Notes: generated from the letters alone by a model not told the origin. A stretch of 59,375 nt of DNA from Candidatus Saccharimonadales bacterium (GCA_039809105.1 JBDHUJ010000001.1:1-59375), one strand, 5' to 3'; shown: positions 2,252-9,134, counted from the first letter of the stretch. A program made the numbers and translations.

Positions 2252-2692
2252 ATGTATGTAGAGAATGACTCGTCGGTACTCAAGCGGATTCTGTGGTACG
2301 CCCTGTGGTTCATCGTACTTGTGGCGGTGGTGTGGATTCTGATATGGCTCATCTTCTTCCGTGATGGGAAAAAGACAGCCGACAATAACTCCGGTAGCGG
2401 CTCTACGAGCCAACAGACTGGCGGTAGTTCCGGTAGTTCAAATAGTTCGAACGGTTCGAGTAATTCCGGTAGCTCCAGCAGCTCTAACGGTTCCAGCGGC
2501 AGCTCAAGCAGTACCTCGGGTTCGTCGCAAAGCTCTGGTAGCACGAGCGGCTCTAGCGCTTCGGGCTCGCAGGGCGCATCACAGCTCGTCAACACCGGTC
2601 CTGGCGATGTGTTTGCCTGGGGCGCAGTGACCGCGGTAGCGGGCGCGGCTGGCTGGCAGGTTTATGTCCGCCGCAAGCTCCAGCACTCGTAG
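2252..2692 (+). CDS. Ser/Gly-rich surface protein with C-terminal sorting signal (LVNTG + TM + RRK)
   Basis: SD AAGGGGGA (2237-2244) precedes ATG 2252. N-terminal TM, long S/G/N low-complexity region, then LVNTGPGDVFAWGAVTAVAGAAGWQVYVRRK at the C-terminus. Confidence 0.65.
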   Translation: MYVENDSSVLKRILWYALWFIVLVAVVWILIWLIFFRDGKKTADNNSGSGSTSQQTGGSSGSSNSSNGSSNSGSSSSSNGSSGSSSSTSGSSQSSGSTSGSSASGSQGASQLVNTGPGDVFAWGAVTAVAGAAGWQVYVRRKLQHS

Positions 2693-2766
2693 GGCGTCTG
2701 GGAAAGCCAAAAGATGTGTTCAAGGGGTGCGAAGTATGCCCCATATCTGTTATACTGAACAGCAAA

Positions 2767-3735
2767 ATGACTCGCGTTCACCCTCCCCTTCTCTCTATCG
2801 TAGTGCCCGTGTACAACGAACGGGCGGGAATCGTGTCGTTCCACGATTCGCTGCAGGGTGTGTTGCGGCAGCTGCCGATGGATTTTGAAATCATATACTG
2901 TGACGACGGCAGTATCGACGGCAGTACTTCCCTGCTCCATGAATTAGCCGAGAAGCATCCTGAAGTCCGGGTGCTCAGGCTGTCGCGCAACTTCGGTAAA
3001 GAACTGGCGACCACGGCGGGCATCCATGCTGCGAGCGGCGATGCCGTCATGACGCTCGACGCCGATGGTCAGCACCCGGTCGAACTTATCCCGCAGTTTG
3101 TGGCCAAATGGCAGCAAGGCGCCAAGGTCGTTATCGGTGTGCGGACTGACAAGCGCCGCGCAGGGCTCATCAAGCGTGCCGGCTCCAAGCTCTTCCATGG
3201 CCTGTTACGCAAAATCAGCGGCATAAAACTTGTACCCGGTGCCGGCGATTATCGGCTCATAGACCGCACGGTGCAGACAGAATTTGTCCGCATGACCGAG
3301 CGCAACCGGATAACCCGCGGGCTCATAGACTGGCTGGGCTACAAGCGCGAATACGTGTACTATCGCGAGAACGAACGGGCGCACGGCAACGCAGGGTATA
3401 GCTTCGGCAAATTAGTCAAACTGGCCATCGACAGCGCCATATCGCTCAGTATTTCTCCGCTCTATATCACGGCCTACATCGGCGCCGTGGTGTTGCCGCT
3501 GTCGACGCTGCTTGGCCTGGGCATGGGCGTGAACTATCTGTTCGGCGACCCGCTGGGGCTCAAAGCGACCGCCAGTGCGTATGTAATTGTGCTTATGCTG
3601 TTCCTGATAGGCATCATCCTGGTATCGCAAGGTATCATCGGTCTGTATCTGTCGCACATCCATACCGAAACGCAGAACCGGCCGCTATATATCGTCGACC
3701 GGGCCGAGTCAAGGGGCATCCCGTGGAGCGAATAA
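2767..3735 (+). CDS. GT2 polyprenyl-phosphate glycosyltransferase (GtrB/CsbB/DPM1-like)
   Basis: LSIVVPVYNE, CDDGSIDGS, LSRNFGKE and TLDADGQHP motifs plus two C-terminal TM helices. ATG 2767 is chosen inside ORF 2716..3735. Confidence 0.88.
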   Translation: MTRVHPPLLSIVVPVYNERAGIVSFHDSLQGVLRQLPMDFEIIYCDDGSIDGSTSLLHELAEKHPEVRVLRLSRNFGKELATTAGIHAASGDAVMTLDADGQHPVELIPQFVAKWQQGAKVVIGVRTDKRRAGLIKRAGSKLFHGLLRKISGIKLVPGAGDYRLIDRTVQTEFVRMTERNRITRGLIDWLGYKREYVYYRENERAHGNAGYSFGKLVKLAIDSAISLSISPLYITAYIGAVVLPLSTLLGLGMGVNYLFGDPLGLKATASAYVIVLMLFLIGIILVSQGIIGLYLSHIHTETQNRPLYIVDRAESRGIPWSE

Positions 3736-4139
3736 AAGCCTTGCTCGCCCGCCCCGTTGGCCGTTACCTTATCATCGGCGGAACGGTGTATGTGTTTGAG
3801 TTGGCAGTCATCTTTGCCGCGCAGGCGCTCGGTGCATCGGCGGTGTGGGCGGTGGCAATCAGCTTCTGTTTGGGCACTATCGTCTCGTTCTTTTTGCAAA
3901 AACTGGTAACCTTCGGCGACAAACGCATGCAGCACAAGGTGGTCGGGCTGCAATTCGCTGCCGTCTGTGCGCTGGTAGCCTGGAATTTCACGTTCTCTGT
4001 GGTGCTGACCAAGCTGCTCGAGAATGTAATGCCAGCCGTGGTTACTCGGACGCTCGCGCTTGGCGTTACCACCATCTGGAATTTCTACCTCTACAAAACC
4101 CGCATTTTCAAAAACTCTGACGAAGTCGTGGTGGGTTAG
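3723..4139 (+). CDS. GtrA-family small membrane protein (putative lipid-linked sugar flippase)
   Basis: 138 aa with four TM helices. RYLIIGGTVYVFELAV... and ...WNFYLYKTRIF are typical of GtrA. The GTG start overlaps the GT2 stop. Confidence 0.82.
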   Translation: MERIKALLARPVGRYLIIGGTVYVFELAVIFAAQALGASAVWAVAISFCLGTIVSFFLQKLVTFGDKRMQHKVVGLQFAAVCALVAWNFTFSVVLTKLLENVMPAVVTRTLALGVTTIWNFYLYKTRIFKNSDEVVVG

Positions 4140-4143
4140 CGCA

Positions 4144-6918
4144 ATGGCTGCATCGAAGAAGCAATCAAAAAACCAGGTAAAACCGCACGCCATTTTGCTC
4201 AGCCGCACCGAACTGACGAGTGCTGCCCGCTCGAAGCCGAGTATCGATACGGCAAAACGCCAGGAGAAGCCTGTCCAGACTGCGAAGCCCGCCCGGAAAT
4301 CTGCCAAAAAAGCCGACCCGAAGACCTCCCAAAAACCAGCCGTAAAACAGCCTCGCCGCAACTGGTTCACGCAGCTTCTTGCGAACAAGTGGTTCCGCTA
4401 CAGTTACGCCCTCGGTGCACTCCTGGTGTTGGTGGCTACCACCCTACTGTGGTCTGTATGGGGGGCAAAGCTGCACAGTCTGAATGCCGACCAGCTGGTT
4501 GACCCGTATTTATTCGGTTCGGGCGCGACGTTCCACGGCGCGACGTTCCCGGGCGCACACAGCTTTTTGCTCAAGTGGCCGATTTTCTGGTTGGTTGCAC
4601 ACTTCGGCATGTCTTCTATGAGTCTCATGGTGGCGACGGCTGGTGCGGTGCTCCTGACGGTACTTGTCCTGGCGGCAGTGCTGTACGGTATCGACCGGCG
4701 GCCACTGGTGTTCGGTACCATCTGCCTGTTTTTGGCGCTTATGCTACTGCTCGTGCCGACGCAGCCCTACCCCGGTGCGCTGTTGCCGGTGAATATGGCT
4801 ATGCTGACAACGCGTAACCTGGAGTATGCCCTGTATATCGTAGCGCTAGTGTTTGTCATATGGGCTGGCCGGGTGCGGAGCTGGTATTCGCTGGCGGCGC
4901 TCGGCTGTCTGACGTTGCTTATCGCCAGCGATAAGTTGTTTGCGAGCCTGGGCCTGGGCAGCGCACTCATCATCACTGTCCTGTATGCGCTGTGCCAGAA
5001 CTGGCAGCTCGTGCGGTTGGGGGTCCGCTGGTTGTGCACGGTGCTCGTTGCCACGGTGTTCTCGACGGTGCTGCTCGCCAGTCTCCAGCTGGCGGGAGTG
5101 ACGCACTTCGCTAGCAGCTCAAATATCAGTCCGTATGGTCTTACGAATACTCCGAAGGATGGCGTGCTCGGTGTGGTGTACGGTACGCTGGGCTTTCTGA
5201 CGAACTTCGGAGCCAACCCGGCATATGCCGCTAACGTGTTACGCGACATCCCCGCCCGTGCTTCCCACGAGCTGGCGACCATGGCCGGGTTCGCGTACTG
5301 CCTGGCGTTCGCCGCAGTCGTCTTCGGCTTACTGCACGTATGGCTGGTGGTGCGCCCGACACTGCAGCCGTCGCCGGCTAAGAAAGTGCGGCCGGTCGTG
5401 GCGACCGAGCTGTCGTTGCTGCTTATTGCGTCAACCATCACAGCTGCCGTCGTGTTTGTGGCCACGAAACATTACTACGCGGTCGATGCACGATATCTGA
5501 CTATCGCAGTCTTTGCGGTCTTCGTCGCGACGGCTACGTCGCTCCGCAGCAAGACGCCCCGGCCGGAGGTACTTACTCTCTGCGGTGCTCTCGCACTGCT
5601 AGGTATAGCACTGGCGGTAGTTTCGGCCGGCCGAAACTACGCCCAGAATACCGCTGCGCTGAGCGACCTCCGCCACCGCAGCTACATTGTTGCGCAGGCG
5701 CTCGAACACCACAAAGTCGCAGTACTGGCTGGCGACTATTGGCGCGTGTTGCCCGCCAAGTTCCTCTCGGCGCACGATATGCAAGTTATGCCTTTCTCTG
5801 GCTGTACTGACCCACGCGCCGATTTGAGCAGCACCGCCTGGCAACCCGACCTGCATAAAACCAGCTTTGCCTACCTGCTTTCGCTCGATCGCCCACTGAC
5901 CGATTATCCGCAGTGTACCCTCGACCAGGTCCTGCAGGCCTATGGTCAGCCAAATGCCAGCTTGGTCGTTTCGGGCACGCTGTCTAACCCCAAAGAGCTG
6001 GTTCTGTTTTACGACCACGGCATCAATAAACCCGGTGTTACAGAAACCGACACTAGTTTGCCGCCTACCTCTGTCCTGCCGGTCGGGCTGACCGACCTGC
6101 CGAGCACGAGCTGCGAAGGCACGACTGCCATGAACATCGTGGCACACGAGGACGATGACCTGCTCTTCCTCAGTCCCGACCTGCTCCATACGGTACAATC
6201 GGGTGACTGTGTGCGTACGGTGTTCCTGACGGCTGGCGATAGCGGACACAACAAATTCTACTGGGTCAACCGGCAGCTCGGCGCCCAGGCGGCTTACGAC
6301 ACGATGCTCGGCAAAAAAGACGTGTGGGTACAACGTATTGTGCGACTGGCCGACAACCGCTATATAAGTGTGTCGAGCCCCAAGTCGGACCCGAAAATAT
6401 CACTCATTTTCTTTAACTTGCCGGATGGCGGATTGCAAGGCAACGGCTTTCCTTCGTCGCACTTCGAGAGTCTGGCGAAGCTGTATGGTGGAGAAACTGC
6501 CAGCATACAGAGCGTCGACCGGCAGTCCAGGTACGATAAAGCGGAGCTGACACAGGCGCTCAGCAGCCTCATGAATATCTACCAGCCGTCAGTGGTGCGC
6601 ACCCAGGCGGATGTCTACAGTGCGAACTTTCCCGACCACAGCGACCACATCGCTACCGGCCATTTTGCGACTGATGCTGCTAACCAGTACAGCCAGGTCC
6701 AGTTCGCCGGCAACTTCGAGGTGCCGGTGGTGCGCTACATAGGCTACCCGGTACATGGCTACGAACCGAATGTCGGCGGTGATGACTTGGCGAAAAAAGA
6801 AGCGGCGTTTCTGGCGTATGCCCGGTTCGACGGCGGTGTTTGCCAGTCTGCGTTAGCGTGTGCCGAAACGCCGACGTACGGCTCATACATTACCCGCCAA
6901 TATACCGATGGTGAGTAA
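4144..6918 (+). CDS. Large polytopic membrane protein (GT-C/YfhO-like architecture) fused to a C-terminal PIG-L/LmbE-family deacetylase domain
   Basis: Lys-rich tail, then about 12-14 TM helices and an extracytoplasmic region. C-terminal NIVAHEDDDLLFLSPD...FLTAGDSG...FPDHSDHIATG matches the AHPDDE and HxDH motifs of LmbE/PIG-L. ATG 4144 is preferred over 4060, which overlaps gtrA. Confidence 0.78.
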   Translation: MAASKKQSKNQVKPHAILLSRTELTSAARSKPSIDTAKRQEKPVQTAKPARKSAKKADPKTSQKPAVKQPRRNWFTQLLANKWFRYSYALGALLVLVATTLLWSVWGAKLHSLNADQLVDPYLFGSGATFHGATFPGAHSFLLKWPIFWLVAHFGMSSMSLMVATAGAVLLTVLVLAAVLYGIDRRPLVFGTICLFLALMLLLVPTQPYPGALLPVNMAMLTTRNLEYALYIVALVFVIWAGRVRSWYSLAALGCLTLLIASDKLFASLGLGSALIITVLYALCQNWQLVRLGVRWLCTVLVATVFSTVLLASLQLAGVTHFASSSNISPYGLTNTPKDGVLGVVYGTLGFLTNFGANPAYAANVLRDIPARASHELATMAGFAYCLAFAAVVFGLLHVWLVVRPTLQPSPAKKVRPVVATELSLLLIASTITAAVVFVATKHYYAVDARYLTIAVFAVFVATATSLRSKTPRPEVLTLCGALALLGIALAVVSAGRNYAQNTAALSDLRHRSYIVAQALEHHKVAVLAGDYWRVLPAKFLSAHDMQVMPFSGCTDPRADLSSTAWQPDLHKTSFAYLLSLDRPLTDYPQCTLDQVLQAYGQPNASLVVSGTLSNPKELVLFYDHGINKPGVTETDTSLPPTSVLPVGLTDLPSTSCEGTTAMNIVAHEDDDLLFLSPDLLHTVQSGDCVRTVFLTAGDSGHNKFYWVNRQLGAQAAYDTMLGKKDVWVQRIVRLADNRYISVSSPKSDPKISLIFFNLPDGGLQGNGFPSSHFESLAKLYGGETASIQSVDRQSRYDKAELTQALSSLMNIYQPSVVRTQADVYSANFPDHSDHIATGHFATDAANQYSQVQFAGNFEVPVVRYIGYPVHGYEPNVGGDDLAKKEAAFLAYARFDGGVCQSALACAETPTYGSYITRQYTDGE

Positions 6919-6975: not shown

Positions 6976-7082
6976 GATATGAGCGGCAGCGAACGAGCCG
7001 AAAGGCGAGCTTTAGGGGAAGGGAGACTTATCCCGAATTCACTTCGGGATAAGTTGGGAGGGGCGAGCCCCTCCCTGAAGAG
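6976..7082 (+). repeat. Modular hairpin repeat, family B copy 2
   Basis: Same blocks as 1943-2160. Carries the nested hairpin GGGAGACTTATCCCGAATTCACTTCGGGATAAGTT. Confidence 0.9.
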
Positions 7083-7449: not shown

Positions 7450-7526
7450 GCACCTGTAGCTCAGCTGGATAGAGCGTTGGCTTGCGGAGCCAAAGGTCGT
7501 AGGTTCGAATCCTGCCAGGTGTACCA
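7450..7526 (+). tRNA. tRNA-Arg (anticodon GCG by manual fold), CCA encoded
   Basis: Acceptor GCACCTG/CAGGTGT, D arm GCTC..GAGC, anticodon stem TTGGC/GCCAA with loop TTGCGGA, T arm GTAGG-TTCGAAT-CCTGC, then ACCA. Confidence 0.88.
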
Positions 7527-9134
7527 TGATTGAATTAGAGCCTCGTAAGAGGCTTTTTTCATCTGTTGGGGCAAGGTTCCGACGCGGACTAACTCCGCTT
7601 CCATGGCTGCCTTAGTATCCACCACTGGCTGTAAGTATTTGATGGGCTTGATGAACACCTGACCGTCCATGTACACCAGCCGCTCGTTCAGCCCTGCTAG
7701 CACCGCTCGCTTGCGTTCGTCGCTGTCGCTCTCAAAGTCCTCTTTGGCATAGCGGGCGAAGTTAAAGAACTGGCGGGCACGTTCACGGGCTTGGCGGCTG
7801 CGTTCCTGCTGTTTAGTGCTGCTGGTCTGTGGGTCTTTGAGCTGCCGCTCTAGCTTGCTGCTCTTGGCGTCAAAAAACGCCTCGCTACAGCGTCCCGTGT
7901 AGAGCATCCGCTGTAAGCCGTATAGCTCAGTCTCAACGGCTTTTATAGCCTTACCTTGAGCCTTGTGCAGCTTCTCTAGGTCGGCTTCTTGCTCGTCGTT
8001 CCACTCGTTCAGATACTTACAGGCATACTGAAAGAAGTCGTCCATAATGGTGTACTTCTTGAGCTCGTCACGGATGAGCTTATTCATGGACGCTGGCTTG
8101 ATTTTCTGCTTATTAGAGCACGTGTAGTCCTTGCGGCGGTCTGTGCAGTAGCAGTACTCAAAGTATTGGCTCTCACCGTTCTTGTAGTGGCGTACCTTGC
8201 GGGCATAGGTGATTATGTAGCCACACTCGCCACACTCCACCAGCCCACGGTAAACATTGAAATAGTCGTACTCTGCCATCACGGTAGGGCGGTGGCGGTT
8301 ACTGACAGCTATCAGGCTCTGTACTCGGTCAAACTCCTCAGGCGTCACCATAGCGGGGTGGTTGCCGTGGTAGAGCTTGCCGCCGTAGATGAAGTCGGCT
8401 CGGTAAAACGGGTTATGAAACATGGCATACACGCCTGCCACGCTCAACGCCATGCCGCCCGTCTGCTTCCGCTGCACGGTCTTAAGCCCTAGCTCCTTGT
8501 CGGCTTTTCGGGCTATCTCGCTAGCGTTGTACATGCCGCTGAGCATCCAGTCCCACATTTTGCGGACTAACGCCCAGCGTTCAGGGTCGGCAATAATGAT
8601 TTTGCCTTGTAATGGGTCGTGGAAGTTTACATAACCGATGGGCGGTACGCCTGGGAACCAGCCCTTGTCAGCACGGCTGTACATACCACGGCGGACGTTC
8701 ACCATCAGCTCACGGACGTACTGGTTGCTCATGCTAGCCTCTACGCTAAAGATAATAGCGTTGTCAGATGGCAGGTAGACTTTATCGTTAGTGATGATGC
8801 ACTTAATCAGCCCGTCTTGTAAGAGCTGTTGTAGTACACCGCTTTCGGCTGGGTTGCGGGATAGGCGGTTAATCTGCCAGCAGATAATGGCGTCAATCTC
8901 GCCGCGGCGGATACGCTTAATCAGGCGGTCAAATTCTGGTCGGTTGCCTGGCGTTTTCGCCGATTTTTCCTCTTTGATGATATTAGCTTTTTTCAGCTTG
9001 ATGCCCAGGCTGGTGGCTTTCTTGCTCATGATGCCTACCTGGTCGCCGATGGACTGTACCTGCTTGCCTTTGTCCTCGGTGGATTTGCGGGCGTATAGCC
9101 CTGCGTTTAGTTCTCTGTAATTAACTTCGGTCAT
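7461..9134 (-). CDS. Large serine recombinase (integrase)
   Basis: N-terminal resolvase fold (GLYARKSTEDK, DAIICWQINRLSRN), recombinase domain, Cys-rich zinc ribbon (CGECGY...YCYCTDRRKDYTC) and a coiled-coil tail. The last ~30 codons are antisense to the tRNA terminator and tRNA-Arg. Confidence 0.9.
   Translation of the reverse strand: MTEVNYRELNAGLYARKSTEDKGKQVQSIGDQVGIMSKKATSLGIKLKKANIIKEEKSAKTPGNRPEFDRLIKRIRRGEIDAIICWQINRLSRNPAESGVLQQLLQDGLIKCIITNDKVYLPSDNAIIFSVEASMSNQYVRELMVNVRRGMYSRADKGWFPGVPPIGYVNFHDPLQGKIIIADPERWALVRKMWDWMLSGMYNASEIARKADKELGLKTVQRKQTGGMALSVAGVYAMFHNPFYRADFIYGGKLYHGNHPAMVTPEEFDRVQSLIAVSNRHRPTVMAEYDYFNVYRGLVECGECGYIITYARKVRHYKNGESQYFEYCYCTDRRKDYTCSNKQKIKPASMNKLIRDELKKYTIMDDFFQYACKYLNEWNDEQEADLEKLHKAQGKAIKAVETELYGLQRMLYTGRCSEAFFDAKSSKLERQLKDPQTSSTKQQERSRQARERARQFFNFARYAKEDFESDSDERKRAVLAGLNERLVYMDGQVFIKPIKYLQPVVDTKAAMEAELVRVGTLPQQMKKASYEALIQSWYTWQDSNLRPLAPQANALSS
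7539..7559 (+). terminator. Rho-independent terminator of tRNA-Arg
   Basis: AGCCTC-GTAA-GAGGCT followed by TTTTT. Confidence 0.75.

Follow-up and report, generated by a model that had tools for sequence, protein, structure and literature searches.

Here we describe a three-gene module in a 59,375-nucleotide (nt) stretch of DNA from Candidatus Saccharimonadales bacterium (GCA_039809105.1 JBDHUJ010000001.1:1-59375), referred to as a whole as the window. The source genome belongs to the soil Saccharibacteria. The module consists of a glycosyltransferase family 2 (GT2) gene, a gene for a small GtrA-family membrane protein and a gene for a 924-amino-acid (aa) protein. In the 924-aa protein a membrane domain of predicted GT-C glycosyltransferase fold is joined to a deacetylase domain of the LmbE/PIG-L type (GT-C::LmbE). 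We propose that the three genes form one operon and specify an extracytoplasmic glycosylation system of three components, one of which includes a deacetylase, a reading to which we give a probability of roughly 0.6. The module has the architecture of a three-component glycosylation system (GT2, GtrA and GT-C fold); the transfer of sugar is predicted. The features of the operon are as follows.

2751..2756, + strand: -10-like hexamer TATACT, 10 nt before the GT2 ATG, a short-leader or leaderless geometry (read from the sequence)
2767..3735, + strand: GT2 polyprenyl-phosphate sugar synthase (GtrB/CsbB/PgfS/ArnC-like), 322 aa, with C-terminal transmembrane helices
3723..4139, + strand: GtrA-family small membrane protein, 138 aa (PF04138)
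4144..6918, + strand: 924-aa GT-C::LmbE protein, ATG start
4384..5631, + strand: GT-C-fold membrane domain of that protein, aa 81-496, 11 predicted transmembrane helices (AlphaFold2 and Foldseek)
6109..6918, + strand: LmbE/PIG-L deacetylase domain, aa 656-924 plus stop (PF02585)
5632..6108, + strand: middle alpha/beta domain, aa 497-655, predicted extracytoplasmic, with cysteines C554 and C591, shared with unfused paralogues of 550-570 aa (AlphaFold2 secondary structure)
4144..4383, + strand: Lys/Arg-rich disordered N-terminal tail, aa 1-80, predicted cytoplasmic

The membrane domain was assigned from its structure. An AlphaFold2 model of the full-length protein, built on an alignment of 81 sequences, has a predicted local distance difference test score (pLDDT) of 86.1 and a predicted template modelling score (pTM) of 0.80. 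A model of aa 70-655 from the same alignment reaches pLDDT 89.2 and pTM 0.89. When the latter was compared with the PDB by Foldseek, nine matches had a probability of 1.00 and every one of them is a GT-C glycosyltransferase. Their template modelling (TM) scores are listed here.

ArnT, PDB 5ezm: TM 0.43/0.47, E 1.9e-4
ArnT, PDB 5f15: TM 0.41/0.43
DPY19, PDB 7zlg: TM 0.48/0.44
AftA, PDB 8if8: TM 0.43/0.42
STT3, three entries, PDB 6s7t, 8b6l and 9n9j: TM 0.36-0.39 / 0.31-0.34
PglB, two entries, PDB 3rce and 5ogl: TM 0.38/0.33

The matches to other folds had probabilities below 0.25 and TM scores below 0.17. On the model, the assignment to the GT-C fold is clear, while the relationship is remote and visible by structure only. 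The preliminary description of this DNA had made its proposal depend on a GT-C-like fold in the membrane part, and the model has one. It had also pointed to YfhO, PMT_2 and related profiles, which find nothing. No Pfam GT-C family (YfhO, PMT_2, GT87 and others) matches the 924-aa protein at E <= 0.01, and none matches any of 49 diverse homologues at E <= 1. No NCBIfam family matches the membrane domain, and a profile search of the membrane part against the PDB returned chance-level G-protein-coupled receptor matches only. With phmmer, aa 80-510 found only 215 matches among 1.84 billion representative proteins. Ten of the most distant and unfused clusters among these were looked up, and the named organisms were solely Patescibacteria/Saccharibacteria. 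The putative GT-C domain is a family that sequence databases do not recognise. Databases name the homologues of the 924-aa protein only 'PIG-L family deacetylase' or 'PIG-L/LmbE family deacetylase', a label that hides what is probably the main activity, glycosyl transfer by the GT-C domain.

Conservation within the family may point to the same part of the membrane domain that is catalytic in known GT-C enzymes. The polar residues N114, D116, Q117, H139, K144, R224, N225, E227, S262, D263, N354, N358, H443, D448 and R450 are invariant in 81 homologues. With the exception of R186, the invariant polar residues map to predicted outward loops or to their edges. When paralogues are added to the alignment N114 remains invariant, and D116, an acidic residue of the first predicted outer loop, is at least 90% conserved. 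The active sites of GT-C enzymes, such as ArnT and PglB, lie on outward loops.

The deacetylase domain is recognised by sequence. PF02585 (PIG-L) is the sole sequence-family match of the 924-aa protein (aa 663-845, 52.2 bits against a cut-off of 28.2), and it is matched in 39 of 49 family members. Eight residues, H668, D670, D671, D672, D831, H832, D834 and H835, are invariant in the 81 homologues, which upholds the earlier recognition of a PIG-L/LmbE domain. They include an H-x-D-D motif (H668-E-D670-D671) and an H-x-D-H motif (H832-S-D834-H835), which we take to be the metal-binding and catalytic motifs of MshB-type enzymes (H13/D15/D16 and H144/D146/H147 in MshB). Foldseek matches of the domain comprise TT1542, BC1534 (TMt 0.59), MshB, diacetylchitobiose deacetylase, Orf2* and BshB. 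To judge by its motifs and fold, the domain is predicted to be catalytically intact.

The side of the membrane on which this domain lies is decisive for the proposal. Hydropathy, charge bias and the helices of the AlphaFold2 model agree on 11 transmembrane helices, where 'about a dozen' had been counted before. The Lys-rich tail noticed at the same time is present and is N-terminal. It holds 21 Lys and Arg residues in aa 1-83, its pLDDT is below 50 and its mean net charge across the family is +8.2. Averaged over the 81 homologues, loops 184-186, 242-246, 284-286, 408-418 and 469-473 are net positive, and loops 111-141, 355-365 and 441-449 are net negative. By the positive-inside rule these charges place the N-terminus inside and the C-terminus outside. 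A count of 13 helices, which adds helices at 142-154 and 337-354, was rejected because it puts the net-positive loops 184-186, 242-246 and 284-286 outside. Both topologies end with the C-terminus outside. In all the GT-C enzymes matched by the model, the C-terminal domain is extracytoplasmic or lumenal.

The cysteines of the soluble half are consistent with this placement. Every one of the 81 homologues has exactly six of them there, all invariant (C554, C591, C657, C689, C900 and C906). Two belong to the middle domain, where C554 and C591 are still invariant when unfused paralogues are included, and four (C657, C689, C900 and C906) belong to the LmbE domain. The even and fully conserved set, with no spare cysteine, suggests disulfides, the pairing of which is conjectural. 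The source genome encodes VKOR. Stand-alone relatives of the LmbE domain in Saccharimonadales (L049 in G486:C13, and L050-L052) share the four-cysteine pattern and begin with a signal peptide or signal anchor; one of them continues into a DUF7402/F5-F8 type C region. In wider LmbE relatives (P0365, P0366, P0375, P0385 and P0388) DUF7402, F5-F8 type C or PA14 domains are often present. Signal peptides and carbohydrate-binding-type domains are typical of proteins that are secreted and act on carbohydrates. The hosts of this secreted clade are Saccharimonadales, other Patescibacteria (Woesebacteria) and Limnocylindrales, and one match is labelled Aspergillus pseudonomiae. Taken together, the positive-inside rule, the C-termini of the GT-C relatives, the invariant cysteines with VKOR and the secreted stand-alone relatives argue that the LmbE domain of the 924-aa protein is very probably extracytoplasmic. 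An outward-facing domain was what the preliminary description had supposed, and no cytoplasmic prediction was obtained.

The first two genes fit the same system. The three genes are co-directional on the + strand, closely packed and, as read from the open reading frames (ORFs), translationally coupled. The GTG start of GtrA overlaps the GT2 stop (TAA 3733-3735) by 13 nt, which is the overlapping start and stop seen earlier, and the ATG of the 924-aa gene at 4144 is 4 nt past the GtrA stop. The order GT2, GtrA and 924-aa protein was correctly described before; the ORFs and PF00535, PF04138 and PF02585 agree with it, and the motifs then quoted are all present in the translations. The GT2 ORF (2716-3735) is open from a GTG at 2716. 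Its start is likely the ATG at 2767, since homologues align from residue 1 of that version and TATACT lies just upstream. A promoter scan detected no complete sigma-70 site before the operon on the + strand, and the promoter and terminator scan of the region gave nothing above shuffle expectation.

The GT2 protein matches PF00535 (3.5e-29). Its best NCBIfam match is PgfS (5.7e-62, with PgfS 3-305 of 308 aligned), at 210 bits against an equivalog cut-off of 500. The second-best is ArnC (7.9e-42, with ArnC 8-311 of 316 aligned), also below the equivalog cut-off. The protein does not qualify as a PpgS equivalog (NF058614, 33.6 bits against a cut-off of 370). Its translation ends in a hydrophobic C-terminus, and the predicted architecture is that seen in polyprenyl-phosphate sugar synthases. 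The GtrA protein matches PF04138 at 3.3e-12 (47.1 bits against a cut-off of 26.1).

The fusion is widespread within a narrow group. When the 924-aa protein was searched against 5.8 billion protein clusters, at least 525 full-length relatives of approximately 870 aa were retrieved, mostly from Candidatus Saccharimonadales. The best 120 of these measure approximately 830-1090 aa; they are 45-79% identical to the query and cover 85-100% of it. Among 301 species genomes sampled from the order, 53 gave a match, approximately 40 of them with an uninterrupted full-length frame. Approximately 15% of the sampled Saccharimonadales species carry the GT-C::LmbE fusion. A phylum-wide sample of 301 genomes gave four matches, all within the same class, and the one outside the order covers the LmbE part only. 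A genome of the same genus (L014) has the whole module at 90-96% identity. Full-length homologues in independent assemblies and the same-genus copy indicate that the fusion is a conserved gene. It is confined to Saccharibacteria and common within the order Saccharimonadales. No published description of it was found in literature searches, and a Southlakia transposon sequencing (Tn-seq) paper does not mention it. The fusion had previously been called unusual. This stands in that it is undescribed and restricted to Saccharibacteria, but not within the order.

The linkage of the three genes was surveyed by tblastn. The GT2 and GtrA proteins of the window and three parts of the third gene were compared with 10-kb regions of the species genomes that carry the fusion. 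The survey of such fusions beside GtrA and GtrB genes, as proposed earlier, gave 32 informative loci. Both GT2 and GtrA adjoin the fusion in 19 of them, GT2 only in six, GtrA only in three and neither in four. GT2 and/or GtrA is thus adjacent in 28 of the 32 loci, and GtrA in 22. Since the flanking genes differ between loci, the trio appears to move as a unit. In some lineages the linkage has become a fusion. P0026 is a GtrA::GT-C::LmbE protein with GtrA at its N-terminus (confirmed by Pfam), and in G109:C5:95403-97943 (L032) GtrA is fused in the same frame in the same order. Triple fusions of approximately 990-1060 aa occur in several lineages; P0144, P0153, P0154, P0205 and P0214 are probable examples, judged by length and match offset. 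There are also unfused paralogues of 550-690 aa, which comprise the membrane and middle domains but lack LmbE, and those in L046-L048 likewise adjoin GT2 and GtrA. Because they keep this linkage, we consider GT2, GtrA and GT-C the ancestral unit and the deacetylase an addition to one branch. No further conserved partner gene is supported. Beyond GT2 and GtrA only GT4 (8 of 35 loci) and a yidC-rnpA-dnaA neighbourhood recur. In 7-8 of the 35 loci of relatives the module lies next to jag/khpB-yidC-rnpA-rpmH-dnaA, the replication-origin region, which may be its ancestral position.

From these components the following sequence of steps can be proposed. At the cytoplasmic face the GT2 protein, judging from its family, would transfer an N-acetylhexosamine (HexNAc) from a nucleotide sugar to polyprenyl phosphate. 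GtrA, again by family, would either help in this synthesis or help the lipid-linked sugar to flip. The GT-C domain with its 11 helices would then take the flipped lipid-linked sugar as the donor and pass it to an extracytoplasmic acceptor. The last transmembrane helix and the middle domain would keep the LmbE domain at the outer face, where it would strip the N-acetyl group from its presumed substrate. The outcome would be a free, protonatable (cationic) amino sugar, carried by a wall polymer or a protein.

Several observations weigh against this scheme. The likeness of the membrane domain to GT-C enzymes is remote (TM approximately 0.4-0.5, with a high root-mean-square deviation) and the domain matches no GT-C sequence family. 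The GT2 protein falls far below all NCBIfam equivalog cut-offs. The fusion has no GT2 or GtrA gene within 4 kb in four of the 32 loci. That the sugar, and with it the substrate of the LmbE domain, is N-acetylated is read solely from the presence of a deacetylase.

The order of the last two steps is the point at which an alternative survives best. The outward LmbE domain could act earlier and convert polyprenyl-phosphate-HexNAc to the corresponding hexosamine (HexN) form, after which the GT-C domain would transfer the amino sugar as such. This order matches the proposal made for galactosamine on mycobacterial arabinogalactan. PIG-L itself, the namesake of the family, is established to act on a membrane glycolipid, N-acetylglucosaminyl phosphatidylinositol (GlcNAc-PI), and in the fusion the LmbE domain is membrane-anchored, beside the donor site. 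However, the approximately 160-aa middle domain lies between the LmbE domain and the membrane, and the secreted LmbE relatives carry F5/8 type C, DUF7402 and PA14 domains, which point to polymeric glycans as substrates. The carbohydrate-binding partner domains of the stand-alone relatives lead us to lean towards polymers. We regard deacetylation of the lipid-linked donor as a tentative alternative with clearly less than an even chance, and slightly favour deacetylation of the product after transfer. Transfer followed by deacetylation was the order assumed in the preliminary description; it is retained as the slightly favoured one of two possible orders.

A second alternative concerns the acceptor. 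The most likely acceptor is a wall polysaccharide, for example a rhamnose-type polymer encoded in the source genome. Reading of translations, not Pfam, identified ORFs resembling rmlA, rmlB, rmlC and rmlD beside another GtrA gene in C22:14131-26732 of that genome. In a relative (L003) Wzm/Wzt, epimerases and a GT4 adjoin the module. A wall polysaccharide acceptor fits both the rml-like set and these neighbours. The C22 region also has two GT2 genes and a gene for a 621-aa membrane protein, and looks like a rhamnose-polysaccharide cluster. A further GtrA gene, in C2:38610-42403, lies beside a gene whose 908-aa product begins with a GT2 domain, likewise by reading of the sequences, not Pfam.

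The alternative acceptor would be a protein, with O-glycosylation of Ser-rich disordered regions of surface proteins, in the manner of the streptococcal Pgf and GtrB/PgtC2 systems. A candidate is encoded directly upstream of the module.

2252..2692, + strand: small Ser/Gly-rich protein, a possible acceptor, not proven to be part of the module (translation)

The product has an N-terminal transmembrane helix, a Ser/Gly-rich stretch of approximately 75 aa, the motif LVNTG, a hydrophobic segment and the tail RRKLQHS. It looks like a sortase-anchored stalk without a globular domain. Sorting signals with LVNTG or LVETG are found at the ends of other ORFs in the source genome, which also has four sortase genes. 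These endings suggest that the local sortase motif may be LVxTG, not LPxTG. The gene is conserved at the same-genus locus (L014). A Ser/Thr-rich secreted protein is likewise encoded directly upstream in L005 and L006. The best NCBIfam match of the GT2 protein, PgfS, is from the Pgf protein-glycosylation pathway of S. mutans. That pathway places N-acetylgalactosamine (GalNAc) on Ser/Thr-rich disordered regions (bioRxiv 10.1101/2024.05.05.592596). Against this, apart from the window only two of 40 scanned loci have a Ser-rich neighbour immediately beside the module, and no Ser-rich gene is among the recurrent neighbours. The PgfS score of the GT2 protein is also less than half of its cut-off. 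As the Ser-rich neighbour is conserved only within the genus, we hold a protein acceptor to be unlikely, at about one chance in four, and retain the wall polysaccharide.

A third possibility is that the LmbE domain works independently of the glycosylation genes, on peptidoglycan or on glycans of the host bacterium, and that the membrane domain is mainly an anchor. Secreted stand-alone relatives without a GT-C part exist, and GT2 and GtrA are not adjacent in the four loci mentioned. However, the clustering of invariant polar residues on outward loops implies that the membrane domain has been selected as more than an anchor. The linkage in the other 28 loci, the triple fusions with GtrA and the retention of the linkage by unfused paralogues also tie the domain to the glycosylation genes, and we consider its independence very improbable.

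Finally, two genes might have been joined artificially, by a frameshift or in assembly. For this one can cite the TAA that interrupts the gene in two of the sampled species (G063 and G459). We consider it next to impossible given the at least 525 relatives from independent assemblies, the approximately 40 species genomes with an uninterrupted frame and the need for the last transmembrane helix to export the soluble half; the fusion is genuine. The copy in G063:C1:668295-670961 (L044) has one internal TAA, precisely at the junction of membrane domain and soluble half, and that in G459:C2:34467-36815 also has one internal TAA. These copies may be decaying genes or pseudogenes, split genes or sequencing errors.

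The surroundings of the module in the window are varied. Copies of a hairpin-rich repeat at 1943-2160 and 6976-7082 bracket the Ser-rich gene and the three-gene module. The second copy begins 58 nt past the stop codon of the operon and could serve as its terminator. Upstream, at 1023-1799 on the - strand, is a gene for a DUF1295/steroid-reductase-like membrane protein (PF06966, 8.4e-60), which is unlinked to the module in other genomes. Downstream are a tRNA-Arg (GCG) gene at 7450-7526 (+) and an ORF for a large serine recombinase of 557 aa at 7461-9134 (-), and the tRNA gene overlaps the 3' end of the recombinase ORF. The G+C content falls from approximately 0.58 to approximately 0.50 there, a drop of approximately 8 points. 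The region of the tRNA and recombinase genes is the start of an integrated island, and the glycosylation module is outside it.

Saccharibacteria live attached to other bacteria, and their surface chemistry is almost unknown. If the module installs free amino sugars it would alter surface charge, sensitivity to lysozyme and cationic peptides, phage receptors and possibly attachment to the host. The family may even be the first in which an LmbE-type deacetylase outside the cytoplasm is coupled to a GT-C enzyme, so that one polypeptide both adds and unmasks a wall amino sugar, although we would put this at somewhat below an even chance. If it is true, many soil Saccharibacteria would tune their surface charge in this way.

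Three-component systems of the kind proposed here are known from the O-antigen (GtrB/GtrA/Gtr(type)), from teichoic acids (CsbB/GtcA/YfhO) and from the streptococcal rhamnopolysaccharide (GacI/GacJ/GacL). As in those systems, a GT2 synthase, a GtrA-family protein and a polytopic transferase of GT-C fold are encoded together, and the C-terminal domain of the transferase is outside. The present module differs in that its GT-C domain is a sequence-orphan and has an extra LmbE domain, absent from all of those systems. The streptococcal Pgf and GtrB/PgtC2 systems are similar in that the GT2 protein is closest to PgfS and that a Ser-rich surface protein is encoded beside the module. Those systems are not known to include a deacetylase, and the linkage to a Ser-rich protein is not conserved here.

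The ArnC/ArnD/ArnT system provides a closer parallel for the chemistry. In structure the membrane domain is closest to ArnT, and the second-best match of the GT2 protein is ArnC. In both cases an N-acyl group would be removed so that a cationic amino sugar reaches the surface. ArnD is a separate CE4-type deformylase that acts at the cytoplasmic face before flipping, whereas the deacetylase described here is of the LmbE type, is part of the transferase polypeptide and is predicted to lie outside. Nor can lipid A be the acceptor, since the organism has sortases and wall-sorting signals.

The deacetylase domain shares its fold and its metal and catalytic motifs with LmbE/PIG-L enzymes such as PIG-L, MshB, BshB, TT1542, BC1534 and diacetylchitobiose deacetylase. 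To our knowledge, the characterised members are all cytoplasmic or face the cytoplasm. The clade described here differs from them in its four invariant cysteines, in its signal peptides or preceding transmembrane helix and in its carbohydrate-binding-type partner domains, all of which point to work outside the cell. The fusion joins two activities that are elsewhere found in separate proteins, or for one of which the protein is unidentified. Two properties are known from no described system: the fusion of the deacetylase to the transferase, and an LmbE-type enzyme predicted to work outside the cell.

The mycobacterial and corynebacterial galactosamine (GalN) pathway (PpgS, Rv3632 and Rv3779) is the most similar in outcome. 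There a GT2 enzyme with a GtrA-like helper makes polyprenyl-phosphate-HexNAc, and a GT-C enzyme places the deacetylated amino sugar on arabinogalactan as a cationic substituent (PMC9671496, PMC7502851). Both systems combine a GT2, a GtrA-like protein and a GT-C enzyme, and in both a wall polysaccharide would receive a cationic amino sugar. They differ in that the deacetylase is fused to the transferase here and in that the GT2 protein is not a PpgS equivalog. Any kinship of the GT-C domain to Rv3779 must be remote, given the small number of phmmer matches and the names returned for those looked up. In mycobacteria deacetylation has been proposed to take place on the lipid donor before transfer, by a deacetylase that is 'as yet unidentified' (PMC9671496). 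The GT-C::LmbE architecture hints at where this enzyme might be sought, among secreted LmbE-type enzymes. Should the coupling of an extracytoplasmic LmbE domain to a GT-C enzyme prove true, the fusion would provide an enzymatic model for extracytoplasmic deacetylation in amino-sugar decoration, that of mycobacterial GalN included.

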